A stretch of DNA of 40,956 nucleotides from Basidioascus undulatus (lineage: Eukaryota), in the NCBI GenBank assembly GCA_000826855.1, contig JTLS01000031.1, positions 1 to 40,956 on the forward strand, in the 5' to 3' direction. Shown piece after piece: positions 11,220 to 40,956 of this stretch (the stretch's first letter is position 1; every line of letters starts with the position of its first letter). A model generated the notes under the pieces. It did not search any database. It was not told where the DNA came from and saw nothing but the letters and a program-made list of their open reading frames with translations. The position numbers and the translations under genes are program-made.

Positions 11220-11301
11220 GCCCGGATTTTTGAACAAGTGTCGTCGATGATTCCCACGCTCCATGCAGCTTGTTTCCGTTCCCAGCTTGTCTTTTGCAGG
11301 G
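11220..11301 (-). repeat. Inverted repeat copy B, in the ArgRS upstream region
   Basis: Reverse complement reads ccctgcaaaagacaagctgggaacggaaacaagctgcatggagcgtgggaatcatcgacgacacttgttcaaaaatccgggc, which aligns to 7867-7950. Confidence 0.9.
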
Positions 11302-11409
11302 TTTCTTTATAGCGCATTTCACAGAAAAATTGCCGGTATCAGATATCGTAGAACTGCTAACCACAGGCATCTGTGCCCAAGGTTGCTGAGAAATCGCCGC
11401 TGAGGCTGG

Positions 11410-15103: not shown

Positions 15104-15746
15104 TCTGGGACGGCCCGGCGGCGGGGAATGGCGAAGGACTGGCTTACTACTTCGGTGTAGGGACCGAATGTTGCGTATTACACTGGTTTAACACTGTATA
15201 ACGATTTTACGAGATTGAACTTTTGACGTCTTCTTGATAACGCCAAGTGGGAGAATAAGTTGGTCGGGTGTGCCTTTCAGTCTAGGCGGTCCTTCTGGTA
15301 CGGTAGTTAAGCTTGGGAAGGGGCCTGTACAAGCAGCGTATGCCCTGAGGTTCAATTCCAATGCTTAACTGATTTTGTTGATTTTCCTTGCGAGGCAGTA
15401 GACAACCAAGGCTTGAAAATGTTGCAGGAGTTCAACCTTGCAGCCGTCAACGCTACTTGTAAGTTGGTTGCCAGTGGGTCGTTTGATCGGAGCGGTAGCG
15501 GGCCAGTTTCTGTAGACTGAGTGACTGGACCTAGCTCTATAGCATTGAAAGATACCAAAGATGTATGGCAGGCGAACAAAATGCTGCCTGTATAGAACAC
15601 GCAGTCTGAGGTTTTTCATTCCGTTGACTTCTTTGGCAACACCGGGACGCGGCGCGTCGACGCGCTTCCCTGCCAGGTCGCGCCGCTTGCGTCGTTCGTT
15701 GCTCTTTACCGTTCCTCATTGCCTGTTTTCCACACAGCTCCCAGAA

Positions 15747-17207: not shown

Positions 17208-17549
17208 GGCGTTGAATGGGGTTGATGTGAGTGTGGGAGGCACCCTCGTGGCTTGGGATTATGCGGCGCCGGCTTCGGCTGGAGTGGTGAGCGCAGACGT
17301 GTGACCTGGCTTGACTCGGACTTAGTAATAGTGCGGCACAGCTGACTAGCAACTCTCGTCCGGTCAGAACCGTCGCAATTCCCTAGGCTTTGGTATACGC
17401 GCGTCGATGCATGATAGTACAAAGCAGCCATGAGCTTTCGAATGCTAATGCAAGCACCTTGACGCTATTATGTCCAATGCCAACGAACACAACTCTGATA
17501 TGCTACTGGAACCATAAAATGAAATGCGATCAAAGCTGGTATGCCACAT

Positions 17550-20500
17550 TCACAGTCCCTCGAACGGCTCCTTTAGCAGCAACTCCTTCTCCCTCGCGTG
17601 CCACTTCCCCACGCCCACAGCCGCTGGGCTCTCCCTGCGACCCAGATACCTCAGCCTTTCCTGCCTTCCCGAAGCATCCAGCAGAGCATCGATCCGCTCC
17701 TTCACGTGGGCCCACCCGCCCTGGTTCCGATGCTCCTCCTGCACCCAACAGATCTCCTGCGCCGCGTTGTACCGGGAGAGCACCGCCTCGACGGCGGCGA
17801 AGGGGAACGGGCACAGTTCCTCGATCCGCACAAGCGCCACGGACGCCTGTACATCGGAGGGAAGAGTCGCACGAGCGGCGGAGAGGTCGTAGAATAGCTT
17901 GCCGGAGAGGAGAAGGATGCGCCGGACTGTGGAAGGATCGAGGGAGGAGGGGTCGTCGAGGACCGGTCGGAAGGCAGTCGAATGGCCCATTTCCGAAAGG
18001 GATGAAGCAGCGGCCTAGCATACGCGAAAATTAGTCCTGCATTCGACGGGCGGCAACAGCGAAAACGCTTACGCTTGATCGGAGCAGGCCTTTCGGGCTC
18101 GCAATGATGAGCGGCTTGCGGTAGTTGCGGTGCATCTGGCGGCGAAGTAGGTGGAAGTACTGCGCGGGCGTCGTCAGGTTCGCTACGGAGATGTTGACGT
18201 TCGCGTGGGGGTTTGGGTAGTAAGGGTCGTTTGAGAGCTGGAGGTAGCGCTCGATGCGAGACGACGAGTGCTCGGGGCCGGCCCCATCCATCCCGTGTGG
18301 CTGCGGGAACGCTGCTGTTCAGCGAAACATTCAGAGGCAGAACTGGCACGCAGTCTTTCGCATACGAGAAGCATGACGAGTCCGCTCTGTTTCAGCCATT
18401 TCGCTGCAAGAGGAATCTCTGGATCAGTTGTAGATGGACAAGAGCGAGCTGACTGCCGACCTACCTTCACTGGAAGCCACGAACGTGTCGATAACGACCT
18501 GTGCGCCGTTGCCGAAATCCCCAAACTACACCACACCGACTAATTAACTCAAACTTCTTGCGACTGCCTGATTTTCGACGTACCTGGGCTTCCCAAATGC
18601 CAAGCAACCTGGGGCTGTCGATGGTCATGCCATGCTCGAATCCGAGCACAGCAAGCTCGCTGAGGCTCGAGTTGGCAATCTCCAGGCGGCCGTGCGAGGG
18701 TGCGGGCGACGCGTTGAGCGGAATGTGAACTTGTTCGGTCTGATACGAACCCACAGAGGAGTTATGGATGCAGTTCTGTGGGGTCAGTACTTGAAGAACC
18801 ATCGCACCTTCTGGTCAACGAGCATCGCATGGCGCTGCGAAAATGTGCCACGGCCGACGTCCTGCCCCGAGATACGGACGTCGAAGCTAGGATGCCCAGA
18901 TTCAGCAAGTTCGTCAGTTAGGATTCGGAGCACTCACCCCTCATGCAAGAGGGTCCCGAAAGCCAACGCCTGATTATGGCTTGTCAGTAACTGTATCCGC
19001 CAGAACAAACTGAACTATTCTGTACTTCAGCAGTCGCAAAATCGATCCCGGTCCCGGCTTCGAGGCTTTTGAGACGGTTTTTGACTGCGTTGTTGGGGTA
19101 GACAAGGATGAAAAGACTGCAAGTCCCGGCTTCGAAAGAACAAACAGCTCACTGTGCCTCTGCAGCCTCGGATGAATCTCGAACCCATCGGGGGTCTCCA
19201 CGCTCTTCGCGCCCACCTCGCGAAGTGCGTCCACAGCAATACCGGTCTCCGGAGAATGCACAGCCTCCGCCGAAGCGGGCCAGACCATGTGCGCCCACTG
19301 GTGCCCAAGCATGTCCGGCCGAGCCACGTAGTCGGTGTCGGCGGCTTTCAGCTCAGCGTCGAGGAAGGCTTTGTGCTCGGCTCGGAGAGATGAAGCAGCT
19401 TCAGGCGAGAGGACTCCGTCGGACTACATAGTATGTTTCTCAGATGTGAGCAGGCTATCAGCGCCAAAGGCAAGAAGGGAAGATCTACTGACAATAAGCT
19501 TGTCCTCGTAGAGCTGCGGGACGGACTTGCGCGAGCGGATCTTGTCGTACATGACAGGTTGAGTATCTGAGAGCTCATGAATTAGGGTGTGAGGAATGTA
19601 GCCACGAGGAAATTTGACGCACAGGACGGCTCGTCGAGCTCGTTGTGGCCGTGACGGCGGTAGCAGAGCATGTCCACGACCACATCTGCAGACATGCTCA
19701 AGATGCGCGGTCAGCGCTACTTCTGGACGAAACGAGCATGTCTGCCGACCTTTGCGGAACTTGTCTCGGTAGAGGAAAGCAGTCTCGATGGCTTGGACAA
19801 CGCTTTCGGGGTAGTCCGCATTCACATGGAGAACCGGTACGTTGATGGCTTTCGCTGGGTCGGAAGCTGTGGGCGAGCAGGATCAGAATCTCCCCCACAA
19901 GTATCTCCCCCAAAAAATCAAGATTTTCAGCTCTATCATTTGACGGTCACTCACCGTAAGGCGAGGAACGAGCATTCGCAGCCGGGGTGGTGTAGCCGAT
20001 ACTGCACACATATCGACGTTAAGTCAGTAACAGAACCTAGAAAGAGGGGACAAAAATCTGACCTGTTGTTGACGACCAAGTGCACCGACCCGCCGCTGGT
20101 AAAGTGAGGAAGATTGCTGAGGCCCAGGGACTCCATGACGATGCCCTGCCCCGTGAACGCCGCATCACCGTGAACCTGAAGGCAGAGAACGCGATCTCCT
20201 GTAGCCGAGCGCATTTTCAGATATCTACCAGATGTTTATTACGGAATAATTGCAATGAAACACGAACCTAGGCTGCACGAGTCGGGTTCAATCGCGAAAT
20301 CGCGAAGGAGCGAGGTTTGCTTCGCACGGGCTTTGCCGAGCGCAACCGGGTTGATAGCCTGTAACAAAGTAAGAACTGAGAAAAACAAGGGAGAAGTAAT
20401 TTTCCGAAAAGTCCTGCGCACCTCCAGATGAGAGGGGTTCCTATCCCCTCCCAGTCAGCGAACTTTCCTAAGCGCAGTGCGATAAGATGGACGTACTGTA

Positions 20501-22733: not shown

Positions 22734-23599
22734 CTATTTCCCCAAGCTTCTTAATTATCTATGTCCATGTCCGAGGGAGAATATCGACGACTCCCTTCCG
22801 TATGTGGTCTTCTTCAAATATACACTCTACACAGTGCACAATGCGTTTGTGCCTTTCACCCACGGTCTTAGAGCTTGTGATTCTGTCCAAGGTATTAACA
22901 GGTATTAACCTCTTCTTTAGCAGGAAATAGTGTCTGTGGCTCCATTTCAGTACGCTCTGAGCTCGCAATCCTCGTGCAGTTGCCTGGCAGTCGTTCACAA
23001 GTGCTCTTCCCCAGTCTTTTGCGGGCATTCCCTGGTCGTCTTTCAAGCTTTCAGAGCTGCCTGCATTAATGTTCTCGGCTCAATTGAAAGGCTGCAAATT
23101 TTCTCTCAGCGGCCGCTGCCATCCGCTGACATCCGCTGCATTTAGCGGACCGCCGCTCGCGCCATCCTACCCCGCATTTGACACGATTGAGGACTTTCAC
23201 ATGGCAAGCTCGCAGCTCTCGGCCCCCGCTCATCTCCGTGCCTTGGTGCACATTGCCTTCCTGCTTCTCAGGTCTTCTCGCTAGAAAAGTGTAGAAAGTT
23301 CTACGAAATGAATTGCACGAACTGACTGCGGTGGCCCTGTGGAGCAGAGTGGAGAGGTATGGGGGTCCATGAGAAGACGAGTGCCCAGAGCGGACATGTC
23401 GGGACAGCACGGTGCTGCTTCCATAACGCGTCCGGCACGCGTGCGCCGCGCCGGTCCGCTTCAGACTGTGCTTCGCATTCGTACAAGATTCCCCATCTGG
23501 ACCAAGGCCCAAGGGGGTCTATCAACCTATCTTGACCTTACACCACCACAATCACCCACTCTTCCACACCCACCCATCTACACACCCCAATACCATCGA

Positions 23600-24331
23600 A
23601 TGTCTGCATCCACCCAGACCTGCACCCACACCGCGTCGCCTCTCCTGTCTCTCCCTCCGGAGCTGTTGCTCTACCTCGGGCTGCAGCTCCCCCCTTCCGC
23701 CTTACACGCACTATCCCAGACCTGCCAGGCTCTGCACGACCTCTTGTCGAGCGACGTCCCCGTCTGGCGCGAAGTGCTCACCACCCACCATCTCTCGCTG
23801 CCATCGCGCCCGCCGTCCACACTCACCTGGCCCGCCCTCGGCCATCTCGTCGCGCACGACCCCTACCTTCCGCCTCACCCAGCTGACGCACTCCATCCCG
23901 CAATCGAAGCCCTCTACCTTCCTCCCTCCGCGATCCCGCATTCGTCTTCCCTCCTCCTCGGCGATGGCCGGCCCCTGTCCAAGGCGCCCGCGACGCTCTA
24001 CGCCCTCGCAACTTGTCCGTCCGTGAAGACGCTCACCGTCGTCGTGCCTCACGGCGCGGGACTAGAACCCAAGCGGGAGACGGTGCACAACGATCTGGGC
24101 GTGACGGTCGGGGACGTGGTGGACGCGCTTTGCGGGCTGCTGCTCTTGGCGTGGTGGAACGAGATGAACGACGAGAGCGTTAGCGTTAGCTCGTGGGTCC
24201 CCCTTTCCCCCTTTCCCTCTTACATTCTTGATCTAGCACGGGGATCTGACCACGGACTACATCTCAATAATAGGTTCTCCAGCTGCAAGTACCGCGCGGG
24301 CGACAAAACCCCGGAGGCGGTCTTCGCATGA
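23600..24331 (+). CDS. F-box domain protein (3' end uncertain; probable intron near 24193-24272)
   Basis: MSASTQTCTHTASPLLSLPPELLLYLGLQLPPSALHALSQTCQALHDLLSSDVPVWR: LxxLPxELLxxI-like start, LSQTC and VWR F-box pattern, with coding-like GC3 over ~600 nt. Confidence 0.75.
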   Translation: MSASTQTCTHTASPLLSLPPELLLYLGLQLPPSALHALSQTCQALHDLLSSDVPVWREVLTTHHLSLPSRPPSTLTWPALGHLVAHDPYLPPHPADALHPAIEALYLPPSAIPHSSSLLLGDGRPLSKAPATLYALATCPSVKTLTVVVPHGAGLEPKRETVHNDLGVTVGDVVDALCGLLLLAWWNEMNDESVSVSSWVPLSPFPSYILDLARGSDHGLHLNNRFSSCKYRAGDKTPEAVFA

Positions 24332-26645
24332 TATTCTTGGATCTTCGCGCCTGCTACCCGTGGCCCGCGCACTAGGGACATTTTCTCTCACTTGTCTTTG
24401 GGAACAGTTTTTTTTTTCCTTTTCATTGGGCTCCATTGAATCTTTTACCTACACACTTTCTCGGGCTTCATGTTGTTGTTATTGTTGAAACTCATAGTCT
24501 GTAGCATACCCGAGCACCGATCTGCCCTTTCGTTCACGATTGTCACGTTATACCCTTCAGAAATCACACCGCTTTCCATATCGATTACACAATGTTTGAT
24601 GAACCTTCTGAGGCTCCCTGAATGCGCGAACGCTTGGGCTAAGTGCAATTCTCGCAGTATGAAAACGACGGAGGAGGTAGGACAACACGAGCTGCACTGC
24701 GGTGCCGAAAGGCGTCTCCAACTTGAAACCTCACATACATAAAGATATTTTGGTAGATGTGCAAAATTCCAGAGACCAACAAATGCCCGTGAAGCCAACT
24801 GCGACCGACAGCGAAGTTCACAGCGTATGATGCGAGGAGGGTTGCTCAGACGCAGATTGCAGTGACACCACACCCTCAAAGGATATTCTGCTCACAATAA
24901 CCTTGTGCTATAGATACAAAAGAACAACACACAAAAAATGGTACAATTATTACTAGAAGTCTCTGAGAAATTCAAGGGTTGCGATGCACAATCGCTCGGG
25001 AGGTCTTGCTCCATCACGCCCCAATGGGTGGCGAAAGGCCTGCTACATCGTGGTGCAGATTGCACCTATTTCGTGCAACTCGGCACTACCTCCATTGGGC
25101 CTCGAAAGGAATGATGCGCCAGAAGTGGTGTAAGAAACGAGCATAAATGTCGCGTACCTCTTCCAGCTGCGGGAATCACCCGTCGTACTTCGCGAAACTG
25201 TCGGCAGTCAGTGCAAGGGAGCTTTCTCCCTCGCAGCTTTATTGGCGCTCGTTTTGGAAGGAAGCTTGAGGCACTAGGATGTCTATGGGGGTACGGAAGC
25301 TTGGTTCTAAAGTCGTGGCATTCACGGACATATCGCTGCGTTCGCTCCTGCCGCCGTTGCAATTTTTTGTCGGGAGTATCAGCAACGCTAACGTGCAGGA
25401 AAGAAATACGACGAAAGTCACTTCTTACCGTAGCATCCTGTATTCTCATATGCGAGTATGTAAACACAAGAATCAGGAAAATGTCGTCTCCTCGAGCGTC
25501 CGCCTCCAGGTTGATGGTGGGGAAGAGTGCAACGAGAAAGAATGAACCGTGCAGCAGCTACTTTCCATGTTATCGAGCGTGGGTCTGCAATTGAATTTTC
25601 AGTCGGTGTATAGAGGAAGAAACCTTGTTCTCAACCGAAAGGACAAATAGTTACCTGGAACTCGTGCTCAGAACTTCGAAACGTCACGGCATATTCCTTG
25701 CTCTCCAGAGGCCAGCGCCAATAACGAGAACTGTTTCTAAGCTTGAGCTTCACAACGAATCACGGGTGATCAGTTTGCATTTCGATGCGTACCGGCTGAA
25801 TACGCCGCCTTTCTTCCGTCTCGACGGCCTCCTTGTCCTTCTTCACGCCCCGCACCTCAAAACGCCTGATAGATCACTCCAACCCTGTCCCCGCTATTTG
25901 GCTGTGTTATAAAAGAAACTTCGCGGCTGCCCAGAGGAGACTGTGAAAGTGACGGTGTAGATAGCAGCGTTATTGTCCGTGCAGAGGATCTTCTGTTTGA
26001 GGATGTCAGGCCTCTCAAAAAAGCCTGCATGGTGAAGGTGGTGGTTCGTTGGCGAGAAGGAATGTAGCATGATGTGTGTCATGCATTCCAGAGACGCAAA
26101 GACGACAGGCGAAGAATTGCGACCGACCGCCGGGCATTCGGAAGATACAGTACCTTCGGCGAAATTGTACCACGTCGCGGGCTTCGGAGCACTAATTGCT
26201 TGCGGAGATGTTTTTAATAACGTCACACAATGCACCATGCTGTACACCAGCGTTTTGACAATGCAACGCCTTTTTCTAACTTCAATTTCAGGCTTAGGCA
26301 AGAGATAGCGCCGACGCCATTGGTTCGTTAATAACGCCGGTCGGAGGGCTAACAGGCCAAACCTGAAGGTCTGGAAGGGATGTCCTGTTTTCCAGTAGGC
26401 TATTGTGAATGCGCTGTATACCGTAATGCCCAGTTTCATGTACAGTAAGACGGAGTTCCCGAAAGGAACAAAGGAAGACACAGCCAGTGTGGCGCTAGCA
26501 AGAGGCCTGGGCATCGAATTGACACCATCAGCGAGCGAGACTCTGCGGCCGCTCAGCTTGTTCACACGCCTTCATCAGCAATTCCTGGATTACTCGCTTC
26601 ACAACCAGAGTCCACCTTTCTTTTCTTCGTTCCATATCTCCCTCA

Positions 26646-27674
26646 TGGCCTCCTCTTCCGCCCTCCTTGACTTTATCGATCCGACGCTTGTGCGGTGGGG
26701 GTCGACCCTGCTCGTTCTTGACATCCCACACGACTGCCCCGTGCAGAAGGTGATCGAGGCATACTCAGATTCCGCAAATCCAATGTGAGTCGTACTTTAT
26801 GCCTGAAGCTTATCCATATTGAAAATTACCGATGTGCACTGCATGCACTTCTACCGCCTTCGTTCGCGGTTTCCCATCTTTACAAGGCTCTCCTGGTCTT
26901 CGCTTCTGTGCTTGATGCGCACATTGCTCTCGATCGCAAGTCCTTGACTTTCTCGAGGAGCATGCCTTGGAACGCCAAAGGTGTATCCCTCGCTCGACCA
27001 ATGTCGGGAATCGTGCGCTGTGATAGTGCAGCAAACCGAGGCCGCGCGCTTCGCGAAGTCGACGCTTCCCAGACGGCGTTCTACACGACTCTCAGATGCT
27101 CTTTCCCCGTCACCACATCGGCTTATTGAGCGCCAGTGAGCGCGAACAGTTGGATCGTACAATTCCTCCCGTCAAGGCTTCGCCCTCTTCGATCGTAACA
27201 GCATCTTTTAGGCTCCTCACGCCGTCGAGTCAACTCCATCTCGGGACTAGGACTCGTCTAAACCGCCGTCTATCGCATTTCCCCACTCGAGGAGTTGTAG
27301 ACGCTTCGCTGAATGAACACCCTGGGTCACCATCGAAGCGACGGCGCCTGTCGGATCCACCCCCGCCCCAACACCCTCTTGCCTCGGTCGCTTCGCTCAA
27401 TGCTAAGTCTGAATTGGCTCGCCTGTATCGCTCGCTTCACCCATTCATTCACTTCGAAATGCACACTCCAAACCAGTTCGGAATCCTTCCGCGTCCCCTG
27501 TCAAAGCATCTTCCACCGAAGACCGTCGCACAAGCTCCTCGGAGATGCACCGGCGCCCCCGTTCGAATTCGCCTTTCTCTGACGATCACGGAACAGCACC
27601 ACCTCCACCTTCTTGGCCTTCAGAACCGAGACCTACTTTGGCAGACGTTTCGAGTGGAGAAGACACCATTGTAA
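26646..27674 (+). other. Possible hypothetical or degenerate protein-coding segment
   Basis: MASSSALLDFIDPTLVRWGSTLLVLDIPHDCPVQKVIEAYSDSANP followed by a gtgagt donor, then overlapping + frames with a basic SKRRRL patch. No family is recognised and the frames are not cleanly joinable. Confidence 0.2.
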
Positions 27675-30007
27675 GGCTTGCGGGGGATGGAACGACGCGA
27701 AAGCTACTGAGCTCTTGCACTCGATGCGGGAGATGAACGTCCGATTGTTTCCTTGGTTGGAGGGCGGTGGGAAATGAGAGCGATTTGGGCTTGCACTTAT
27801 AACTGCCTGTCTGTCTGATGACCCATGCCTGTGCCGTGTTATTTGTTTCTTTCGTGGGCTGGTCGCTGTTGAAGCTCACGACGTCCAGCGCGCACACTAG
27901 GGTCGTCAACTGAAGTTGCACCACCAATATCCTCGTTCACAATCCCGCTCAGTGTTTTTGGCGTACAGCAGTACCCCCTTGATTCATGTGGTGTCCTATT
28001 AGCCACTCCCCAGCTCTGCCTCCCCCACTACGTCATGCACCATCTGCCCCGGTCGCGTTACCGGTGACGGTCTTTCTCTGTGTTCACAACAGATGCAACA
28101 CTGAGAACGAGTATCGACAAAGAAAAGGAGTGAGGAGGCCACTCACCTTCTCGTCCAGACGCCTCATTTCGGAGTAACTGAAGACCAGGAGAAGAAAGGT
28201 TCGGGACGATCTTCTGACCAAGAGCAATGCCTAGAGCTGGGACCGTGCTCAGCGTTGCTCAAGTGTTTACTCGCCCGCTGAAGACAACTCCTTTCCGCGC
28301 CTTGATCGCAGCCGCCCTCCTCTTGTGGGCCATCACCTCCAGAACGTAACCCCTCCAGTGTATTGCTCCTATGGTATTATAAATCTTCGCGTTCCTAGGC
28401 TCAGACACCTTCAAAGCCCGTGTTGAGGTGAGCGTATAGAGGAACGAATTGTCCTGAAAGGAGCGAGTTGTACAGTTCAGGATGTCTTTGCCGTCGAATA
28501 TTGCCTGAATTTCAACAAATTTGGCTTACCGTCCGGGCTGTGGGATTTTTGAGTAATGCGAAAAGCAAGGGTTGTCTTTATGTCGACTGGAGTAGGACGA
28601 GGCGGTGCAAACATTGTCCCCGCCATGCACCGTTGCGACAGTAAGCACTGGCACCTTCATGATACATTCCATTGGTTTCGAACTGTGCCAATTTAACAGT
28701 CGCATATACACTACTTAAAACATGTAGGGCAGAGGCAAGGCACAGCGGGGATGTTAGCAGGCAGTCGTGCTGAAACGCACTAAACTGGACGGCAGTGCAG
28801 CCAGCTGCCAGTCTGTTGAGGCTGGGGTTCGTGCCGGTAAGGATCAAGTTTGGTCCAGTCGCAGGGATGACTCCTCGAATCCGTCATCAAACGACATTAC
28901 CTTATTAGCTGCAAAGACAAAGCAGTGGAGAGCCTCTCGTTAGCATGATGATGCACTGCCGAGGGCTGCTTCTGGGTTGACTGTTTGCTGGACCATGTCT
29001 TCACCTCTCCCCTATAACTCTGGAAATCAACTCCAGGCTATTCAACTCGAGAGGGAGGCCGGTCTCTAGGCGAAAGATGTGAGCTCATCTACGAGACACG
29101 GACTGTCGATGAAAGGTTGCTCGCTGAGTCCCTCTGCCGCCTCCAACAAATAGCACAAATAGCTGCGGCAGACGTCCTTCTCTCGGTAAAACAAGCACCC
29201 CGGCGAGCTCTTAGAGTTAGGCTCAAGTTGAACAAGGCTGGCGCCCTGGAGGTCGATTTTGCCTCTATGTGGCCCCACCAGCGCCCAGCACGAGTACCTC
29301 GCACGGAAGGGCGTCGGAAATTTGGACTAGTCCAGACGTCTTTGATCGCAGTCTGACTACTAAAATAACTTGTGCTCTAGCCGTTGTGAAGAACAGCATG
29401 TCGCCTACATTGTCTGCACTTGAGCCATGACTTCCGCGTCATCGTCTGTTGCCCGCGCACGTTGAGCAGTCTTTTCGGTATTCTATGGCTGACGCTGGTG
29501 ATGATGTCTTAAAATCGGGCGGGTAGATATACTCTGTGTTGGCGATAAAAGAACCAGTGGTGGTCTGAAAGGCGCGCAGGGTCGCGTTTCTCGGTGGCAT
29601 CGAAGGGCGCTTGGATGCTCGCGAGGAGTGATTTCGGAGTTGGTCAGCGTCCGGTTGAACACGCTCCATGTAACCTACCCTAATTGTAGACACATTTACT
29701 CTGCAAAATATTTGAACACAGCTCTGCGCGTGTACCTATGCTTGCAAGGTTTCACGCAGCTGCGTGCGGCCTTTCGGTGTCGCAAGAAATCCGCACTAGG
29801 TAGAGGAATTGCTGTTCGACTTCTTGTCCAAAACTTACCCCCTCCATGCGTACATTTCCTATTTGAAAGGGCCATAACCTATCAAAGAAACTTGCCGAGA
29901 GACACTCTGCATCACAAAAGCCATATATTCGCTGTCGCCCTCGTCATTGCGCAAGACCTGCAGCCCATTGTACAATTTATGTATCTAGTTTCAAAATGTA
30001 TCGCCGC

Positions 30008-33000
30008 TCAAGCCTTCTTAGCTACCAAAATCACATCTCCCGGATTGACAACTGTACCAGGCTTCGAAACGATCGCCTCTACCGTGAGCCCCACCAAGTC
30101 TGCCGGAGCGTCGAGGGGGACCTCCATCTTCATCGCCTGCAAATCGCAGCCACGATATTCCATCAAGCTCCTCGAAATCGAACTATCGAAGTCGAATAAC
30201 AGGGGCGCACCTCCAGGATCGCCAGTCGCTGGCCTTCCTCGATAACGTGCCCGGGCTCTACCATGACTTTCCAGACGTTACTGCTCATGGGAGACTGCAG
30301 CTTCGAAAGCGAGGGATCTGCGAGCGGAAGGCATTAAGTATCTCATATAGGAGGCTTCAAGAGAGGAGCGCACCGTCGAACGAGATCTTGACAGTTCCCA
30401 CCTCCTCGGCGGCCTTCCTCTCCGCCTCCCATTCGGCGTAAAGCTTGACTTCCAGGGCTCGGTCCTCCTTGCCGGCAGCAAGTTGCCGTGCACGGAACGC
30501 ATCTGCTTCTTCCTTAATGGACTCCAGGAAGGACGCGTATGCCGCAGGATCGAACTGGTCCTCCCTGATGTCGAAGGTATACGCCCCGGAGTCGAACGCC
30601 GCAAGATCCCGGTCGTACTCTACATTGCAGGAGCGGGTTTCATCAGACAGAAACGACAGGGGTATTCAGAATATCGTATTCTCACCCTCTTGCGAAACTT
30701 CGTAGAAGTCGATGACGTCGAAAGCCTGCGTGAGCCACGGGGTGGAAGGCGAGAAGTTGGGCTTCTTTCCGAACGTATCCCAGATGGGAAGCGTGCTGAT
30801 TGCCTCATGTCAGCATCAACATCGCTCATGGTTCCAGCGAAGTATTGAAATTACCGGCCCCAGTACTGATCAACTGGCGCGGATTAGCGCTCATACGTTA
30901 CGAGAAACTCGCTGAGAGCGCACCTGGTATCCGCCCGGAGCTGAGCAACAACAGCAAACTCAACACGGGTCAGACACTCTCGTATCGCAATTCACGAGAG
31001 CCTTCGGGGTGAAGGAGTTCGGAAACTTACCGTCGACAGGATAAATCGCTAGCAGCTGACCGCCGAGACCAACTGCGATGCAACAGGATTGAGGCAATTC
31101 CGACGAAACGAACTGCCATAACACACTCACCAGTTCCCCTCGGAGTGAACACTCTCGTCGGGTTGTACTGCATCAAAAGCGAGTCAGCGACGCGTCGCAT
31201 AACCACGGGCACACATTCCCATACCTTCTGTACGTTCATACCTGCACAAACCCCCTGCTCGTCAGAACGATATCGCAGATGGCTAGGAGTGATCTGGCTG
31301 TACGCACGTGAACGAGGATCCAGCGGAAGACCAATCGGGGTTGCACAGAGAAATCCGACTGCGACAACCAAATGAAGACCGATGGCTGCCTCGGCCGCAG
31401 CTCGCCCGTTCGGTAAACCGTTCGAGCGTGCCATGGCGTCGAGGTTGTCGGGCAGGTAGGAGGCCTTGTCGCGAATCGTCTCCATGTATCTAGAGAGCAG
31501 GGAGTTCAGCGTCGAAAAGGTGGAGCGGAAAAGCCGAATCTCACCGCTGGACGCTGTCCTTCACCAGCGGGTCGTTGAAGACGATCGGCAGGCGGATCTT
31601 GCGACTAGGGATCTTGACGTCCGATATGGGGGGCATGGACTCTTCGAGCTTGACGAGCAGGTCGATGAGCGCGCGCTGCTCGATGACGAGCGGGTCGAAC
31701 TGAATCGTGAGCGAGCGCGCGTTGGGGTTGAGCGAGAGAATTGCAGAGTTCTCCAGCCGACGAAGCTCGCGACAGAGCATTTCGAGTCGGCAGCGGTTGA
31801 GAACATCGAGCGACATTGTGCCGTACTCGACGATGAGGTAACGGTCACCGGCCTGAAGGGTACCCCACGAACATCAGCCAATTGATTCAAGGCGCGTAGA
31901 CAGAAAGCACTGTTACCTGGCGGTACGTAATAAGCGGGCGGTACGAGCTTTCCATCGGCGGCAGCGTAGCGAGTACAGCCTCGTGAGCACGCTCGCCCGC
32001 GGGAAGTGACATATCGAGACTCCGAGCACTGTCTGCCGAAGCTTCGCCGCTCGCGAGCTGGGCGACCATCTCGAGGTAGGCGCCCATCCGGCGCTGGAGC
32101 TCGACCGCCTGCGCGAAAGAGATGCGCCGCATGCGCAGGCTGTCGCCCGGTTTCGCTTGGCCGACGCGCCATGCGTCGGCGGAAGCAAGAGTGGAGGTGA
32201 TGAGAAGGCCGCCGAGCGAAGGGCAGTCGGCAGCGAACAGGACCGGTACGTCGCTGGTGCTCGACAGCGTTAGCGAAATTGCGGATCAAGTTTCAAAGCT
32301 GAACTCTCACCCGTTCCAGTTTCTACGCCAGACGATAATAAGGGGCATCAGCGCGGTTCAATCCAAGCTCGTGTGAAAACACATACAGTCCACCCGTCGC
32401 TGCAGGACACCAGCGTAAATCATCGAAGACAGTAACAGGTAAACAGACCATTCAGACTTACGGTATCCGAAGTCTGACCCCAAACACCCAGGTGTGAGCA
32501 CCATTGCTGGAGCAGATGGCATGAAGAAGTTGACACACCAATGACATTTGCCGGGTGAGAACCGCCTAACAAGCGGAACATTAGCTCAACACCAACGATA
32601 CAAATGCGCAGACCTTAGTACCTTCGCCTCCATCATCGCGGGCCCACTCAAGACGCGGGCCATCGAGACGGTAACCGACACGGTTAGAGTTGTGCGAAAG
32701 CTTCCACGTGCTCCCATAAACGAGGTCGCGGTCCTTCGGAGTCAGGAAGTAGTCGTCGTCGTGGGGACTGAACAGAAATGTGTTGGTAAGCTGCATGCGC
32801 CGACGACAAGGCAGAGATGCACGAACCCAGCCATAACGTAGATCTCCCACTCGGACTTCAGGAGGCTGTCAAGCCTGGCCGCTTGGGGCAAGTCGTATTC
32901 GGCGGTGTCCTGTGTGTACGCCGCAGCCTTCGGGCAGAGTTCGAGCGAGTCGCCAGCGACGAGGGTGCGCCCTTGGTATCCGCCGAGTGCGAGACTGATG

Positions 33001-35636
33001 GCGGTTGCGTCAGCCCCGTCGTTGATGAATTAAGGCAAAACAACGCACGATGGGGTCGTCGATTTGCTACCAAGGTATTCCGCGACTTTGGGGAAGCCGC
33101 CCCGGATGGCCAGGTAGGCGCGACAGCCATCACCCGAAACGGCGCCGATCACGAGCCGCTGTCCCGCTCGGACAATGCGTCGAGCCCAGAATGGGAAGGG
33201 CTCGCCGTCGAGGGTCGCTGCGGTCGGGGCACCGGCGAGCGCAACGACGGCGGGCGCGAGGAAAAGAAGTTCCGGGCCAGACAGCGTGACCTCGAGCCCC
33301 TCAGTGCCCTCGGGATTGCCGACGAGCAGATTGGCGACGCGGAAGGAAAGCGAGTCCCTGAGAGTTGAAACTGTGTGAGCTGAAGCAGAATAGAAAGGAG
33401 CGGCCAGACTGCGCACATGGGACCACTCTCAGGTACGCCCATGCCCACTTTGTTGCGACCGGGGAAGTCTTGAACGCTATAGGGCAGGCGAATTAGGGCT
33501 TTAATACAACGTCGATACAGTGAAATGCTTACGTCGTGTAAGCGCCACCAGAAATGACATCTACAGCGCAAGGCTGGTACTTGAAGCTCTTGAGGAAGCT
33601 CGTCACTGTAAAACAAAGACGATCAGCGTTAAGTAGTCAACAGCTTGTCGACCGCATGAAATGAGCGTACAGGTGTTGCCAGACTTGAACTCATCCGACT
33701 CAAGGATGCGCTGCGTATAGTCCATGTTGTTCGGCGGACCGTAGACCTTGCTGCGGCTCAAGGTGTCGACCATCTTCTCAATCGCCGCATCGCGAGACGG
33801 CGCAGAGACGATAACCCTACGCATGCTGTCAGACTATTTTCTCAAAGGGCATCCTTTCTGGACTTACTTGGCGAGCATCGGGTCATAGAACGCAGAGACT
33901 TGCGTGCCCGTCTCCACCCAGCCGTCGACCCGGACGCCGGGCGCTTCCGCCCAATGGACGCACTGCAGGAGGCCCGCAGAAGGAGCGAAGTCGCGCGCCG
34001 GGTTCTCTGCGTAGACTCGGACCTGTTTTGGCAAGATGAGGCGTTAAAAGGATCAGAGCCACGAACAAGTCAACGGGAAAGACTCGCCTCGATCGCGGCT
34101 CCGGTCGGGCCGTCGCGCTGCAGCGAGAGTAGCTCCTCCGCGGGGATGCCTCCTCCGGGTGAGGCCAGCTCGGCCTCTCCTTGACGCAGCATGAGCGCGA
34201 CGAGGTCTACGCCGTACGTCTCCTCCGTGATGGGGTGCTCGACCTGCAGACGCGTATTGACCTCGAGGAAGAAGAACGAGCCCGTCCGGTCATCGACGAG
34301 GTATTCGACCTGTAGCGCATAAATATTCAGCTTTGGGAAACTTGGAAGAACACATGCGACCTGCGCACCGTTCCTGCCGACTTGTACGAGACGCTCGAAA
34401 GAAGCGCAACAGCGCAGTCTGTCAGTTTCTTGCGGAGCTCTGCAGGGCATTTAAGATCAGAAGTGTCCGACAGTACGATCGACAGCCGGCTCACCAGGGT
34501 GTGCGATAACGAAGGGCGAGGGGGCCTCCTCAATGACCTTCTGGTGGCGGCGCTGGATGCTGCAGTAAGCGATGTCAGATGCCTTGTTTCTCCCGTGCTG
34601 CAGTACGAGGCAGTCACGGACGAGCATTCGCGTTCCCCGAAATGCACAACCGCGCCAGAGCCATTGCCGAACACCTGCTCTACTGTTAGCCTCTGCATAG
34701 TTGGATCATACGAGCGGAAGGATACTACTTACCTGGACCTCGATATGGCGTGAAGCGTCGAAGTACTTCTCCAGGAAGACGCCCGCGTTGGAGAACAGCG
34801 CCTTCCCGCGCGACGTGACGTTCTCGTACGCAGCAGTGACCTCATCGCGGCTCCGGCAGATTTGCAGACCCATGCCCCCTCCGCCTCCGGTAGCCTGAAA
34901 TCCTTAAGTCAGTCTGGAGTTCACTCAATGCTCGTCAAAATATACACGCGGTACCTTCAGCATGACCGGGAAGCCGATCTCCTCAGCGGCCTTCAGAGCG
35001 TCTTCGGCGGAAGAGAGGAGGCCTGTACCGGGAACGACAGGGACCTTTTATTTTGAAAAGTCAGTCTCAGGGCTTCGAGAGCAGTTTGCAACAGGACACC
35101 ACCTTCGCGGCCACTGCCAGTTCTCTCGCCCGGTGCTTGAGGCCGAACGCCTCGATAGTCGCCGCGTCCGGGCCTAGCCAAGCCATTCCCGCGTCCACCA
35201 CAGCCTTCGCGAAGTCGGTTCTGTCGAGTTTTAGTACCGATCAATGCTGGCGCTTCTTTGAAAGAGCGACGAGGTCGCATACCGCTCGGACAGGAAGCCG
35301 TAGCCTGGAATGACACCGTCAATGTGGGTTTCCGCACAAAGTCGCAAGATCTGAGCACTGAAGACGAGGTCTCTAACATCAACACTGCGTTCTCCAAACA
35401 ACATAGGGCTGGCGCTAAACGTACGCGTCCAAGTAAGCCTGTCCGCTAGATCCCTCCAACGCCAACGCCTCGTCCGCCAGCGACGCATGCGCAGCACTGC
35501 GATCCGCCTCGCTATAGATCGCTACGCTCGTGACACCATACTCCTTGCAGGAGCGAATGATTCGGACCGCGATTTCGCCGCGGTTGGCAATGAGGAGGCG
35601 GCGAAGATGTTTGAAGGGGGCTGGACGCGAAGTCAT
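30008..35636 (-). CDS. lamA: Stand-alone biotin-dependent urea-carboxylase-like protein (LamA type): biotin carboxylase, CT_A_B (PxpC-like), CT_C_D (PxpB-like) and biotin carrier domains; no allophanate hydrolase (amidase) domain
   Basis: Begins directly with the BC motif [16 protein letters not shown]. Also [41 protein letters not shown] motifs [15 protein letters not shown], [11 protein letters not shown], [38 protein letters not shown]-terminal VWKVMVEPG...AILE|AMKMEV (biotinyl-Lys), ending VILVAKKA* at 30008. Confidence 0.93.
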
Positions 35637-35776
35637 GATCGAGTGTTCCAGCGGAACGGCGAAGACGATTGGTTAGAAGCGAGAGGGATCAGGCGAATTT
35701 TATGAGATGAAGTGAGAAGGTGATGGTTAAAAGACAAAGGTCTTGATGGGCACCGGGAACACGGCGCAAGACATGG

Positions 35777-35792
35777 TCCTCGGCGCCGAGGA
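35777..35792. promoter_or_regulatory. Perfect 16-bp palindrome TCCTCGGCGCCGAGGA (CGG-N2-CCG) in the divergent lamA/lamB promoter; candidate Zn2Cys6 factor site
   Basis: The self-reverse-complementary 16-mer is directly visible. A second inverted repeat, CGGCC-N8-GGCCG containing another CCTCGGC, lies at 35840-35857. The regulatory function is inferred. Confidence 0.5.
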
Positions 35793-36076
35793 TACACAAT
35801 AACTATACCCCCGCTCGCACCGGAAAGCGACCGGACCAGCGGCCTCGGCAATGGCCGTATCAAGCGCAGGTTGCGTAGGTCACGCGGAGTCGATTTATGA
35901 TGAACCAGGGGAGGACGGGAGAGCGTTCGAGCCTGGGGCGTCCGGAGCTGCAGCTGCCCGCGCTACAAGCGTCGCTTGGAGGCAACAGCACCTCCTCGTC
36001 TGAGCATCACGCTAGCCTCGAGACTTGGGATGAGAAGTCCGAGTGGAGGTCCGAGGGGACCCCCTGCCTCCTCACC

Positions 36077-37392
36077 ATGTTGCTCTGTGCCATCTCACGC
36101 CCTGCCTACTCACGCTTTTCGAAAGTAATCACCTCCAAAGCATTCGCATTTGCACCCCGGTGCATTCCCAAACCTGCCTGTCCCTCGACCGCGCCTTTCG
36201 ATCTCGCACATAGCTTCAGCAGTCGCACCATGGCTTCCTTGCCGAACAAGCTCACTGTCAATGTTGACATGGGAGAGGTCCGCTGCAGTACTGATACTCT
36301 CTTTGACGCCCGGCGGACAGCTGATTTATTGGATGTTGGGCAGGGATACGGCCAGTGGAAGTTGGGACCTGATGCCGAACTTATGCCCTTGATCGACTAT
36401 GGCAAGTCTATCACCCATATTCGAGTGATCTTCCAAATCGCAGCTGACACAAATCCATGCATCCAGCCAACGTCGCTTGCGGCTTCCACGCCGGCGACCC
36501 GAGCATCATGCTCAAGACCGTCCGCCTGGCGAAGGCTGCAGGCGTCAAGTGCGGAGCGCACCCTGGCCTGCCCGACGTGCGTCGGTCCTCAAACTTTCCC
36601 TCTTCCACCTCTGCTGACCAGATGATTTCCAACAGCTTCGAGGCTTCGGACGCCGAGTCTTCGACATCTCCCCTGAGGACGTCTACTCGGATGTGCTCTA
36701 CCAAGTTGGCGCGCTCGCCGGGATCCTGCGCAGCGAGGGGATGGAGCTGAGCCACATCAAGGTGCGGCATCCTCTCCCTTTCCTCCATGCCCCTCCCATG
36801 TCCACAACTGACACTCCGAGCCCGAAAGCCCCACGGCATGCTGTACTTCTACGCGCTCCGCAACCCAGCCGTCGCGCAGTCCATCGCGCGCGTCGCCAAG
36901 CTCTTCAACGTCCCCATCCTCGGCCTGCCCAAGACCGCGCACGAGACCGCTGCGCGCGAGGAGGGCGTCGAGTTCCTCCCCGAGGCATTCGTGGACATCG
37001 ACTACTCTGAGGAGGGCACGCTCCTTGGCGTGCCGCAGAGCGACAAGGTCACGGCGGAGAAGATCCGCGCTCGGGTGCTGTCCCTTGCTGAGACGAACGA
37101 GAGTGCGTAATTCGAGCCCGTCTTGTAACCATTTCTCCGAGACTGAAATGGGAGTGTGATCGCGATGGACAGCCATCTCTAAGACGGGCAAGAAGGTCCC
37201 GCTGCCGTTCGACAAGAAGCCATTCACAATTTGCCTGCACAGTGACATGCCTGGAGCGTTTGAGAACGTCCAATAGTAAGTCATCAACTTTGAAACATAC
37301 ACACCTTGCGCCAGGTCGACTGAATGAATGAAATGTGCGCCCACAGTGCACGCAAGGCGGTGGACGAGGCGAACGGGAAGCTGTACAAGTGA
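36077..37392 (+). CDS. lamB: LamB/YcsF family protein (lactam utilization protein B; 5-oxoprolinase subunit PxpA-like), multi-exon; alternative in-frame ATG at 36230
   Basis: Spliced: ...[50 protein letters not shown]...[15 protein letters not shown]...LYQVGALAG...HIK|PHGMLY...EAFVDIDY...|...[11 protein letters not shown]...[14 protein letters not shown]. NxDxGE, [12 protein letters not shown], HxKPHG and ICxHxD are all family signatures. One intron (36402-36466) is GC-AG. Confidence 0.95.
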
Positions 37393-37690
37393 ATGGAGAG
37401 CATGCATTAAATGACCCTGTCAATACCATCTGCCCGTTTTGTTTCCTTGTAATCGCCAGTCGAGAATGTCAACTACAGGACTATGTACTGAGTATAGGTT
37501 CTTGCCAAGTCAGAGCCCATCAACCCGTCAAATGCGTTGCGCCAGCATGTCCCGCGTTCTCTTCGGCCGACCATACTAAGTCTAGCGTATCGCAACCAAT
37601 TCAAAGCAGAGCCATCACGGAACTACGGTACAAATACAAGTGCCAAGTCGAAAAGTCAGACGGTCCTCTTCCTCTCCTCCACGCCAACGC

Positions 37691-40316
37691 TCATCCCTCC
37701 AGCGCGACCTCCCGCACGCTCTCCTCAAACACCCGGCACCCAATCGCCATCTCCTCCCCGGACAGCGTCAAGGGCGGGATGAACCGGATCGTGTCCTGTA
37801 CCCCAACCCACCCCGCAGCACCCCACTCAGTCTCCGCTCCCTCTCCTTCTCCACCGAGCGGGACGTACGTAGCACGAGGTAGTAAGCAGCATGAGCCCCT
37901 TCTCAAGGCACTTCTTCTGCACGCGCGAGCCGATGTTGGCTGGGATCGGCTTGGAGGCGGCAGGGGAGGAGGAAGACGAGCGGGGGATGGCGTTCTTGGT
38001 GGACGCGAACTCGACGCCGATCATGAGGCCGAGGCCGCGCACTGTTTCAGTGGGAGTGAGTGAGAGGAAGGGAGGGTGGGAGAAGGCGGACGGACCGTCA
38101 GCGAAGAGGTGCGAGGTCTGGGGGGATGTTTGGAGGTTGTGCAGGGTGTCCAGGAGCTGGGCGGAACTGCGCACACGGAAGAGGCGTCAGCGCAGAAGAT
38201 GGTGCTAGTGGAAGTGAGAAACCCACCGAGCGTTAACGTTCCCCAGCACGTCCTCCTCGCGCATGACATCCGCGCACGCGACGCCCGCAGCGCACGACAC
38301 CGCCGAGCCGGCATACGTCCCGCCCTGATCCGCTCCGCACTGTATCAGCCTCTCAATCCACCCCACCAAAGTAAAGCAAACAAGGACTGACCAACGATCC
38401 CTTCGGCATCTTGTCCATGATCTCCTTGCGCGAGACGATCCCGCTGAGGGGGAAGCCGTTGGCGATGCCCTTGGCGATCTGCAGGACGACAACCGCAGAC
38501 TTGTAAGCTTTCAAGTGAAGAAGAAAGAGGACACTGGAACGGACCATCATGATGTCCGGCCGGACGCCCGAGTGCTCGATCGCAAAGTACTTGCCCGTGC
38601 GCCCGAAGCCGGACTGGACCTCGTCGCTGACCATTCCCACAATCTGAGCATCTATGTCCCTACACAAGAGAAGCGTAGAAGCTTACATGACCAGCAAAAT
38701 CCCGTGCTTGTCGCAGACCTGCCGCAGGGCGCGGAGGAACGCGGGCGGGGCCGGGACGTAGCCGCTGAGAAACGCTCACTGCCTCAGCATGCTTTCCTTC
38801 TTTTTGCCGAAAAAGGAGAAGGAAGGGAGAAGAGAAGACTCACCCCTCGCCGAGCACAGGCTCAATGACGATCGCCGCGGTGTCCTGCGGGGCCGTCTGC
38901 TGCTGGAGGAGTAGCTCGAGCTGGTACACCGCCTGAGAGACGAGGACGTCCTCGGGCGTGTCTTGGGAGAGGCCCATCTGGTCTGTATTACATCAAAGTC
39001 AGATCAAACAAGCTCGTGTCAGTTCATCAGTTCATACGGAAAGCGGGTGAGGCAGAATGGGCAACGCACGCCAGTAGGGAAAGGTCGTCGCGAAGATGCC
39101 CGGCTGTTTAAATAGTGACGAATCAACAAGGTAATCCAGAGAGAGGAGAAATTGGGAGGAAAAGAAGACGCACGATCCCCTGCCCGACCTCCTGGAAGTA
39201 CACCGTCTTGGACTTGGTCATCGCCGAGGAACCGTACGTCCGTCCGTGGTAGCTTCCTTTACAACCCCAACCCCCTCACTCTCGCATCAGCTTCTCTCCT
39301 TTTCTCCCTCTTCATCCTCTCCTCTATCTCCTCTTCCTCTCTTCGCGAGACGCACCCTGCATGACGATAACATTGTGCTTGCCCGTCGCCTTCCGCGCAA
39401 CCTTCACGGCCGCCTCGGCCGCCTCGGAGCCGGAGTTCCACTGCCGGAGAGATGGTGTTAGGTCGTGGGAAATGGGGTGTGGGTAAAGGTAGAGGAGGGG
39501 AGGGGGGAGACGGAAGGGGGAAGACGCACGAAGAAGAACGTGTCGAGCGAGGGGTCGGGCATGACGGCGAGGAGACGCTCGATGAGCTCCAGGCTGCCAG
39601 ATCATCCGCCAACATCACATGGTCAATTTATCTGGGAGCATATGAAGGGTGTGGGTACGTAGGAGCGGAGGGAAGACGGACTAGGGACGGTGGAAACCGA
39701 TCGAGCACTGGCCGTGCACGAGCGTCGCGACCTGCTCCTGCGCGGCCTTGGTCACGCGCGGGTGGGAGTGGCCGAGGTTGGTGACGCCTGTGAACCAACC
39801 AAAGTCCCCATCTTATACATGAGCCAGCTCGTTTCTCTCCAAAGAGACAGATGGACGCACCAATCCCCGCCGTGAAGTCGAGCAGCTTCCCGTTGCTCTG
39901 CCGCCCCTCCCTCCATCAGTTCCCGGAACGTATAGAGATAGGGATTATATAGTACGCACAGTGTGCATCCACGACCCCTCCCCCTTCTCCAGCACATAGT
40001 CCGTCATGCGTGCTACGCCATACGCGACGTGCCGGACGCCGAAGTCGGAGAGGGTGGTGTTGGACGTGGGCGCGGGCATCTCGGTGTTGCTTAATGCTGC
40101 AGGGATCTGACGGGCCTGTGTGTTGTGTGGTGTTTGTTAGGATTGATGTAATGAATGATGAGGGTGAGGGTGAAGGTGGAAGAGGGGGAGGAGGAGTGGG
40201 AGGGGAAGGGGAGCGAGGGGAGGACATACGGAAGCAGACGCGTGCACGAAGCGGCGGGTCGAAGACGCTGCTAGGCTGCGGGCGACGCGGCCGGCGGTGG
40301 TCGTGCGGCTGAGCAT
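37691..40316 (-). CDS. Class III PLP-dependent aminotransferase, 4-aminobutyrate (GabT/PuuE-like) or related omega-amino acid transaminase, with a mitochondrial-presequence-like N-terminus, multi-exon
   Basis: [30 protein letters not shown]-terminus; [80 protein letters not shown] (PLP Lys), [25 protein letters not shown]...EVALEG*. The family call is firm; the exact substrate is inferred. Confidence 0.9.
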
Positions 40317-40956
40317 GTTAAGATAGTGTAGGGTACGCCAGTGGGAGTGGCGGTTGAAGGTGAGTTGAGTCGAAGCGCTGGTTCACTGAGCAAGGGGAGA
40401 TCAGGAAGAATCAATGAGTGCTTTGGCCTTCGGCCCTCGCCTCGCAATGCAGCCCGCGGCTGCAGCAGGCCACGCGCTCGGCTAATTCTACGCACATTTG
40501 CCGCGTCCGATCCTCGGAAGGAGGAGAGGCGAGTCGCTAAGCGCTGGCTGGGAGTGCGAGTCGTAGGAGCAGGCGTGGGAACGAGGCGGGGAGATAAGCG
40601 TCGGTTCGGAGCCGGCGCATGAGGGGTTCTCCCGGCCGCGGGGTTAATCAGCCTTCGCATCGCGTCTCGACGACTTCGACGACTTGCCTTCAAAGTCCCG
40701 GGCATTCGATAATGTTGCCTTGAGTTGCATCGGACTTGCTCAAGCTCTATTGCTGTTACACAACTGGAATGCAGCGCAAACGGACAATCCTGTCCGCTGG
40801 TCCTGGCACCAACCCCTCAGACTCAACTTCAGGCCGATACTCAGACGCTCTTCGAAAAGCCATCCATGTTGAAAGTAAAAGAAAAGACCACGAAACCCCC
40901 GTCCCCTCTCAAAGCTGACGGAAGGAGACGGTCGAGCGCGTCGAGCACTACGACGG

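Follow-up and report, generated by a model that had tools for sequence, protein, structure and literature searches.

Does a fungal gene whose relatives are called 'urea carboxylase' in databases still belong to urea metabolism when a gene of the LamB/YcsF family lies beside it and a class III aminotransferase gene follows? The question is raised by a stretch of 40,956 nt of contig JTLS01000031.1 (assembly GCA_000826855.1) from Basidioascus undulatus, hereafter the window, and all statements on the presence or absence of genes made below refer to these ~41 kb. Three intact, complete genes with open frames stand side by side there: a lamA-type gene, which encodes biotin carboxylase, carboxyltransferase (CT) and biotin carboxyl carrier protein (BCCP) domains in a single stand-alone protein, a lamB-type gene of the LamB/YcsF (PxpA) family, and a class III aminotransferase gene of the bacterial GabT type. 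On balance, this locus probably corresponds, in a basidiomycete, to the Aspergillus nidulans lamA/lamB pair, with a 4-aminobutyrate (GABA)-type aminotransferase gene placed directly behind lamB, and it would serve to convert a lactam to an omega-amino acid and the latter to its semialdehyde. The core lamA/lamB pair is already known, and the locus extends that known system, the adjoining GabT-type transaminase gene being the addition.

In A. nidulans the pair is said to have been known genetically since the work of Katz & Hynes in 1989, and its two genes are reportedly transcribed divergently (Katz & Hynes 1989; Richardson et al. 1992). The window shares with this species a gene for a stand-alone biotin carboxylase/CT/BCCP protein (LamA P38095, 1241 aa, in A. 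nidulans) beside and head-to-head with a LamB/YcsF gene, and the two LamA proteins fall, by way of proxies, in the same clade. It differs in that its LamA is a member of a basidiomycete clade, ~40-53% identical to other fungal members and encoded with 31 introns, and in that a transaminase gene of the bacterial GabT type physically adjoins the pair. In A. nidulans, AmdR controls amdS, gatA, gabA, lamA and lamB, and the pair shares its regulation with the genes for GABA transaminase and permease (PMC8016842, in excerpt).

The arrangement of the three genes was established in two ways. Initial domain calls were made with Pfam on stop-to-stop open reading frame (ORF) pieces of the window, and spliced models were built under the guidance of full-length homologues, which were used to place GT-AG or GC-AG introns by alignment score; the splice sites rest solely on this homology and on the GT/GC-AG rules. 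Pfam matches and spliced models (Table 1) agree with an earlier description made from the letters of the DNA (the sequence-only reading), according to which the three genes are adjacent with nothing between them, the large stand-alone biotin carboxylase/CT/BCCP gene lies head-to-head with the LamB/YcsF gene, and the aminotransferase gene ends ~300 bp past lamB, the measured distance being 298 bp between two stop codons in tail-to-tail orientation. The head-to-head gap of 440 bp given in that description has to be corrected, since 593 bp separate the start codons of lamA and lamB, and the region between them is presumed to be a bidirectional promoter. The 31 introns of the lamA-type gene are packed within 5.6 kb and leave micro-exons of 11, 12, 12, 13, 17 and 17 nt. 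At 32254-32538, four consecutive introns in 300 nt interrupt a conserved carboxyltransferase segment, and GC-AG introns occur once in lamA (34023-34087) and once in lamB (36402-36466).

The large protein presents, in this order, a biotin carboxylase, the CT subdomains A-B (KipA/PxpC-like) and C-D (KipI/PxpB-like) and a biotin carrier with the site EAMKME, with no amidase domain. Its exons match the NCBIfam TIGR02712 and PxpC models, its model is collinear in tblastn with homologues of 1245-1283 aa, and it is 53% identical to one of these relatives (P0016) over 1248 aa and 52-53% identical, over full length, to proteins of Saitoella, Kwoniella and Ustilaginomycotina. Several of these traits would also suit a functional carboxylase of urea or guanidine, with an allophanate or carboxyguanidine hydrolase encoded elsewhere, the adjacency to lamB then being without functional meaning. 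The homologue P0016 can be aligned over its entire length with the Kluyveromyces lactis urea carboxylase structure 3va7 (E 2.8e-272), the exons match TIGR02712, the biotin site, the catalytic Lys and the motifs of the biotin carboxylase have all been preserved, and the relatives carry the corresponding database name. Full-length homology, domain order and Lys1605 are indeed common to the window protein and to the urea carboxylases and amidolyases (K. lactis 3va7 and 5i8i; Dur1,2), from which it differs by its separate clade, the deletion of Asp1584, an amidase that is neither fused nor nearby, and LamB as the partner gene.

Phylogeny speaks against the urea or guanidine carboxylase, as the window protein groups neither with Dur1,2 nor with the bacterial urea carboxylases. 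In a tree of 90 rows, the window LamA belongs to an 11-row basidiomycete clade (support of 99 in the Shimodaira-Hasegawa-like approximate likelihood ratio test, SH-aLRT) nested within a 49-row fungal clade (SH-aLRT 100), apart from 41 bacterial urea carboxylases, and it shares a 43-row clade (SH-aLRT 95) with proteins of Aspergillus section Nidulantes, which served as proxies for A. nidulans LamA (P38095), A. nidulans itself being absent from the trees. A second tree, of 50 rows, contained the window model and named homologues in addition to proteins retrieved by a search of 1.8 billion representatives, which supplied the Dur1,2-type sequences (Vanderwaltozyma, 1832 aa; Fusarium, 1841 aa; Blastocladiella, 1932 aa). 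There, the Dur1,2-type urea amidolyases lie outside the clade of the window LamA, which groups with stand-alone fungal proteins. Both trees agree with the earlier proposal that the large protein is of the LamA type, neither Dur1,2-type nor a bacterial urea carboxylase, and as judged from its sequence the window LamA belongs to the fungal LamA-type clade of stand-alone "urea carboxylases". Strope et al. (2011) searched with A. nidulans P38095 and likewise obtained separate clades for urea carboxylases and urea amidolyases (PMC3073912, in excerpt); Aspergillus and Cryptococcus, which have a LamA-type protein, are listed without an amidase in Table 2 of the same paper, and term counts in its accessible text return no mention of lactams or LamB.

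Two LamA-type relatives are of interest in their own right. The protein of the basidiomycete Exidia glandulosa (P0010) groups with that of the ascomycete Diplodia in the 90-row tree (SH-aLRT 100), which may reflect gene transfer or contamination. A protein of 1839 aa from Tremellales sp. (P0069) is annotated as one product in which the LamA-type protein is joined to a fungal transcription-factor domain (PF04082, Fungal_trans), an indication that lamA is immediately followed by a regulator gene there; comparison of the extra part with the window gave no match.

An amidase is also missing from the surroundings of lamA, as the sequence-only reading had noted for allophanate hydrolase. Neither an allophanate hydrolase nor an amidase was found by Pfam in 142 ORFs of at least 90 aa (positions 1-30100) and 51 shorter ORFs, and with the amidase halves (N-termini) from three urea amidolyases as tblastn queries, no match in the window was better than E 0.18. 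The active site points in the same direction as the trees. It was compared by aligning a stretch of an Ustilago homologue with the K. lactis structures, together with a family alignment. K. lactis Lys1605, the carboxyl-transfer lysine (PMC5770610, in excerpt), has its counterpart in the Lys of the window motif KYNPTR, and its column holds Lys in 86 of 89 rows. Asp1584, which belongs to the K. lactis GLGDV motif, is matched by Asp in all 40 bacterial-clade rows and by a one-residue gap in all 49 fungal-clade rows, the window included. In the representative-search sample, the region is covered by 78 of 148 proteins, with the Asp present in 48 and absent from 30, and the 21 Asp-less rows of the 50-row tree form one clade (SH-aLRT 100), so that the loss corresponds to a single change on the tree. 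The window protein thus lacks a residue found in every examined member of the Dur1,2 and bacterial clades, and that it carboxylates urea or guanidine is highly improbable. The combination of retained Lys and lost Asp provides a signature by which LamA-type proteins and their split bacterial counterparts can be told from the true urea carboxylases with which they share a database name.

LamA can also be compared with PxpB at this site. The biotin-free PxpB structures KipI (2zp2) and YbgJ (5dud_B) align without gaps to the fungal motif, with Arg replacing the Lys of LamA. LamA-type proteins therefore appear as hybrids, PxpB-like in having no Asp and urea-carboxylase-like in having the Lys. The second gene belongs to the PxpA family. 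Three lamB exons score 45-63 bits for LamB_YcsF (PF03746), for which the gathering score is 22, and the exons match the NCBIfam PxpA models. The protein is divergent, a word-based search having given four longer proteins (P0241-P0244) that are 49-52% identical over 238-245 of its 254 aa, and the relatives with solved structures are stand-alone 'UPF0271' proteins without exception, with no PxpABC complex among them. According to Niehaus 2017 (through PMC8453981 and bioRxiv 10.1101/2021.12.09.472016, both in excerpt), PxpABC acts as a 5-oxoprolinase. LamB is comparable to PxpA and the LamA CT subdomains to PxpC and PxpB, the Asp being absent from both PxpB and LamA; in the bacterial system, however, PxpB and PxpC are separate and biotin-free, with Arg at the K1605 position, whereas in the window their equivalents form one protein with a biotin carboxylase and a BCCP, and the Lys is kept.

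It could be proposed on these grounds that LamA and LamB form a biotin-assisted 5-oxoprolinase, which would repair or use 5-oxoproline by converting it to glutamate and would not open unsubstituted lactams, the aminotransferase being unrelated to the product. The homology of LamB and of the two CT subdomains to PxpA, PxpC and PxpB, and the description of PxpABC as such an enzyme, are what commends this proposal. Nevertheless, the A. nidulans genes are named for lactam catabolism and form part of the AmdR regulon, which also includes GABA genes (PMC8016842), and the substrates of the family extend beyond 5-oxoproline, since in Pseudomonas putida the PxpABC paralogue PP_2920-2 is needed for growth on butyrolactam (2-pyrrolidinone) while another paralogue serves 5-oxoproline (bioRxiv 10.1101/2021.12.09.472016). 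The Arg of the biotin-free PxpB at the position of the LamA Lys is a further difference, and one of the bacterial loci described below joins the biotin-linked gene set to a caprolactamase and an omega-aminotransferase. A 5-oxoprolinase is therefore regarded as an unlikely identity for the pair, and a lactam such as those of the A. nidulans system as the more fitting substrate.

Bacterial genomes were scanned with a LamB alignment, which yielded 80 loci of the nearest LamB subfamily; they are not mutually independent, because most of them come from metagenome-assembled genomes (MAGs) of Hyphomicrobiales. LamA-like pieces (biotin carboxylase, KipI, KipA) lie beside LamB in 14 of the 80, and 12 of these include the biotin carboxylase. 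The KipI-like protein has no Asp and carries the Lys, as in fungal LamA, in 11 loci of the 14, and one locus (L074) holds the canonical biotin-free set, with Arg at the Lys position. The split operons (e.g., L040, L043, L075 and L004) are made of the same parts as the window genes and display the same Asp-less/Lys motif, but their parts are separate proteins and the aminotransferase is of the PRK06105 type. No publication on bacterial operons of split LamB, biotin carboxylase, KipI and KipA genes was found. A class III omega-aminotransferase gene occurs in two of the 14 biotin-linked loci (L075 and L004; Table 1) and in none of the 66 others. The beta and alpha caprolactamase subunits encoded in L075 score 1100.9 and 1239.1, respectively, the NCBIfam equivalog cut-off being 1000, and this single operon holds two distinct lactam-opening systems. 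The 66 remaining loci account for most members of this LamB subfamily, whose proteins start with MGEG(Y/F); they come mainly from MAGs of Pseudolabrys and Xanthobacteraceae, and neither a biotin carboxylase nor KipI or KipA is encoded within 10 kb of them.

A grouping of comparable content is known from Pseudomonas jessenii, in whose caprolactam cluster the lactamase is accompanied by a class III omega-aminotransferase and by a dehydrogenase (PMC6061476, in excerpt). There too, a lactam-opening enzyme is grouped with the transaminase for its omega-amino-acid product. The differences are that CapAB belongs to the hydantoinase/oxoprolinase A/B family, unrelated to LamA and LamB, that the cluster is bacterial, and that it has the dehydrogenase which the window lacks.

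The third gene of the window encodes an enzyme whose exons match bacterial GabT models (NCBIfam TIGR00700/PRK08117-type), single exons being unable to reach the whole-protein TIGR00700 cut-offs. The protein is 70% identical over 448 aa to P0123 of Wallemia ichthyophaga and 67% identical to P0121 and P0150, of Wallemia mellicola and Meredithblackwellia. With P0123 as a proxy, 70% identical to the window protein, the structure comparison returned ten best solved relatives that are all named 4-aminobutyrate aminotransferases, with Escherichia coli GabT 1sf2 (1.4e-74) at the top and PuuE among them. The pyridoxal phosphate (PLP)-lysine motif and the DEVQ(S/T)G segment aligned in the GabT comparison are also present in the window model. 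The model matches, the solved relatives and these motifs together identify the window enzyme as a GabT-type omega-amino-acid transaminase. The assignment to the GABA/omega-amino-acid type made in the sequence-only reading is accordingly upheld by GabT and PuuE being closest to the proxy. The window enzyme, being of the bacterial GabT type, is not the counterpart of gatA of the A. nidulans regulon, which encodes a eukaryote-type enzyme.

A possible additional 5' exon would extend the aminotransferase by 41 residues rich in Arg, Ser, Thr and Ala, with zero acidic residues. Similar N-terminal extensions are present in the homologues of Rhizoctonia and Panus, and none is found in those of Wallemia and Meredithblackwellia. 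The composition of the extension suggests a mitochondrial presequence.

The readings also differ as to whether the aminotransferase belongs with the pair. It may be supposed that lamA and lamB are a true functional pair for a lactam or a related amide, and that the aminotransferase is a general GABA/omega-amino-acid transaminase, brought beside lamB by rearrangement and neighbouring it by chance. A scan of metagenomes with a LamB alignment gave two loci, one eukaryotic (L001) and one bacterial (L002). L001, a 10-kb contig and the sole eukaryotic relative locus found, has the divergent lamA/lamB pair as in the window, its lamA being broken off before the C-D subdomain. In Trichoderma, the urea-carboxylase and LamB genes are likewise adjacent (PMC8675399, in excerpt). 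The recurrence of a LamB neighbour in these two cases, and reportedly also in A. nidulans (Richardson et al. 1992), is a further argument against the urea/guanidine carboxylase, for which the adjacency would have no meaning. In L002, an open frame of 616 aa (1-1848) has its 5' end off the contig and matches LamB_YcsF at residues 381-613 only, the first 380 residues being blank in Pfam.

Several observations speak for a chance neighbour, and together with a few others they weigh against the lactam pathway proposed here. In L001, the 4.8 kb past lamB hold a 775-aa ORF of no known function and GrpE, and no aminotransferase. In Saitoella and Exophiala xenobiotica, the homologues of LamA and of the aminotransferase are found on contigs of different size. 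The Trichoderma segment with the urea-carboxylase and LamB genes comprises an MFS (major facilitator superfamily) transporter, a C2H2 factor and an NADPH dehydrogenase, and the excerpted account names no aminotransferase there (PMC8675399). In the window itself, the aminotransferase gene converges on lamB and has its own promoter, and a search for motifs common to 35637-36229 and 40317-40956 gave two shared 10-mers, with 0.89 expected and a maximum of 8 in 200 shuffles, so that nothing above chance is shared. The aminotransferase family is moreover widespread in fungi, and Wallemia and Microbotryomycetes have aminotransferase homologues without a LamA of the same species among the best 120 LamA matches listed. 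Among the bacterial loci, 66 of 80 have no LamA-like neighbour, and the aminotransferases of the two biotin-linked loci out of 14 belong to another subfamily (PRK06105 type), being 27% identical to that of the window. If the aminotransferase is mitochondrial and LamA and LamB are cytosolic, the steps of the pathway would be split between compartments. Asp1584 is reported to contact urea (Fan et al. 2012), and a literature search found no open text naming the residue, the one paper returned, a review of 2018, being silent on it. Finally, we know of no biochemical assay of any LamA/LamB enzyme, and no demonstration of their enzyme activity or of the reason for biotin is known to us or was found by literature search.

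On the other side, the odds of a GABA-type transaminase gene lying next to such a pair by accident are ~1 in 1000, a rough figure inferred from there being few such transaminases among thousands of genes and not from a count. Omega-aminotransferases recur in the bacterial LamB-plus-biotin operons L004 and L075, and in P. jessenii such an enzyme is encoded beside the unrelated caprolactamase (PMC6061476). Mere coincidence is for these reasons considered rather unlikely, and a functional linkage of the aminotransferase gene to the lamA/lamB pair plausible. What the sequence-only reading had presented as a candidate complete pathway in one cluster stands in part. The clustering finds a parallel in the two bacterial loci, and it is not seen in L001 or in the separate contigs of Saitoella and E. 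xenobiotica; 'complete pathway' is too strong an expression, because no semialdehyde dehydrogenase, permease or regulator was seen in the window, Pfam scans of its ORFs having returned no semialdehyde or other aldehyde dehydrogenase, no permease and no zinc-cluster regulator. No description of the LamA-LamB-aminotransferase arrangement, also as a basidiomycete neighbourhood, was found in the open-access literature.

Returning to the lactam pathway, its course can be envisaged as follows. LamA would carboxylate its own biotin with ATP and bicarbonate, and its CT domain, the fused equivalent of PxpB and PxpC, would act together with the LamB hydrolase, possibly in physical contact with it, on a lactam of small size, for instance 2-pyrrolidinone or valerolactam. 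The biotin would serve to carboxylate the lactam nitrogen before hydrolysis. Ring opening would give an open-chain omega-amino acid, GABA or 5-aminovalerate, from which the aminotransferase, possibly in the mitochondrion, would move the amino group to 2-oxoglutarate with formation of glutamate and the semialdehyde. In its most specific form, this proposal makes LamA and LamB an uncharacterised biotin-dependent lactam-opening enzyme, operating by carboxylation of the ring amide, in the way that urea carboxylase treats urea, and subsequent hydrolysis, recognisable by its CT domain with retained Lys and lost Asp, and joined in this basidiomycete with a mitochondrially targeted GabT-type transaminase in a small eukaryotic catabolic gene cluster, a version that we put forward tentatively, as an attractive possibility short of a probable one.

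The value of the locus lies in the handle that it provides on this enzyme, since the gene for the presumed next step adjoins the pair in a fungus, while in bacteria, operons combine this module with omega-aminotransferases and a caprolactamase. Should the proposed chemistry prove true, many fungal annotations as 'urea carboxylase' or 'urea amidolyase' would have to be corrected, and a route would be available to enzymes opening stable lactams, of relevance for the degradation of nylon monomers and solvents.

Table 1. Coordinates of the genes, intergenic regions and domain matches in the window, and of two bacterial loci in which LamB is linked to biotin carboxylase, KipI and KipA (positions in the latter are those of the respective locus).
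Feature	Position	Strand	Details
lamA-type gene	30008-35636	-	32 exons, 31 introns of 51-90 nt, 1243 aa; splice model
Pfam matches, lamA region	30008-35672	-	Biotin_carb_N 5.7e-19, CPSase_L_D2 3.1e-12, CT_A_B 1.4e-34, CT_C_D 1.1e-08, Biotin_lipoyl
Region between lamA and lamB start codons	35637-36229		593 bp, divergent; model coordinates
lamB-type gene (LamB/YcsF = PxpA family)	36230-37392	+	7 exons, 254 aa; splice model
Pfam matches, lamB region	36448-37110	+	LamB_YcsF 4.2e-17, 1.2e-11, 3.3e-16
Spacer between lamB and aminotransferase stop codons	37393-37690		298 bp, convergent; model coordinates
Class III aminotransferase gene, bacterial GabT type	37691-40079	-	15 exons, 453 aa, ATG at 40079
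Pfam match, aminotransferase region	38353-39614	-	Aminotran_3 2.8e-16
GT-AG intron adjoining the possible extra 5' exon	40116-40229	-	114 nt; frame and splice signals
Possible extra 5' exon of the aminotransferase gene	40230-40316	-	in-frame, splice signals; 494-aa form
Het-C	875-1192	+	Pfam on ORFs
Arginyl-tRNA synthetase	8166-10791	-	Pfam on ORFs
Protoglobin-like ORF	13904-14443	+	Pfam on ORFs
Lunapark	16317-16829	+	Pfam on ORFs
2-Oxoglutarate dehydrogenase E1	17553-20235	-	Pfam on ORFs
F-box protein	23312-24328	+	Pfam on ORFs
L075 (Sneathiella MAG)	8936-19707		LysR divergent, then LamB, biotin carboxylase, KipI, KipA, CapB, CapA and aminotransferase (PRK06105 type) on one strand
L004 (Lichenihabitans MAG)	7688-19455		biotin carboxylase (-), LamB, TorT-type binding protein, ABC (ATP-binding cassette) ATPase, permease, unnamed ORF, omega-aminotransferase directly upstream of KipI, KipA and a 72-aa BCCP

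The DNA of the window is eukaryotic and intron-rich, with a G+C content of ~0.51-0.63, and the genes recognised outside the three discussed here are included in Table 1. Pfam searches of ORF pieces of at least 50 aa from 24300-30050 and from past 40300 gave only one match, to FYVE and below threshold. Directly downstream of lamA, ~5.6 kb (24300-30000) of lower G+C content (~0.51) are blank in Pfam, and this segment may correspond to a lineage-specific gene or to gene-poor DNA.

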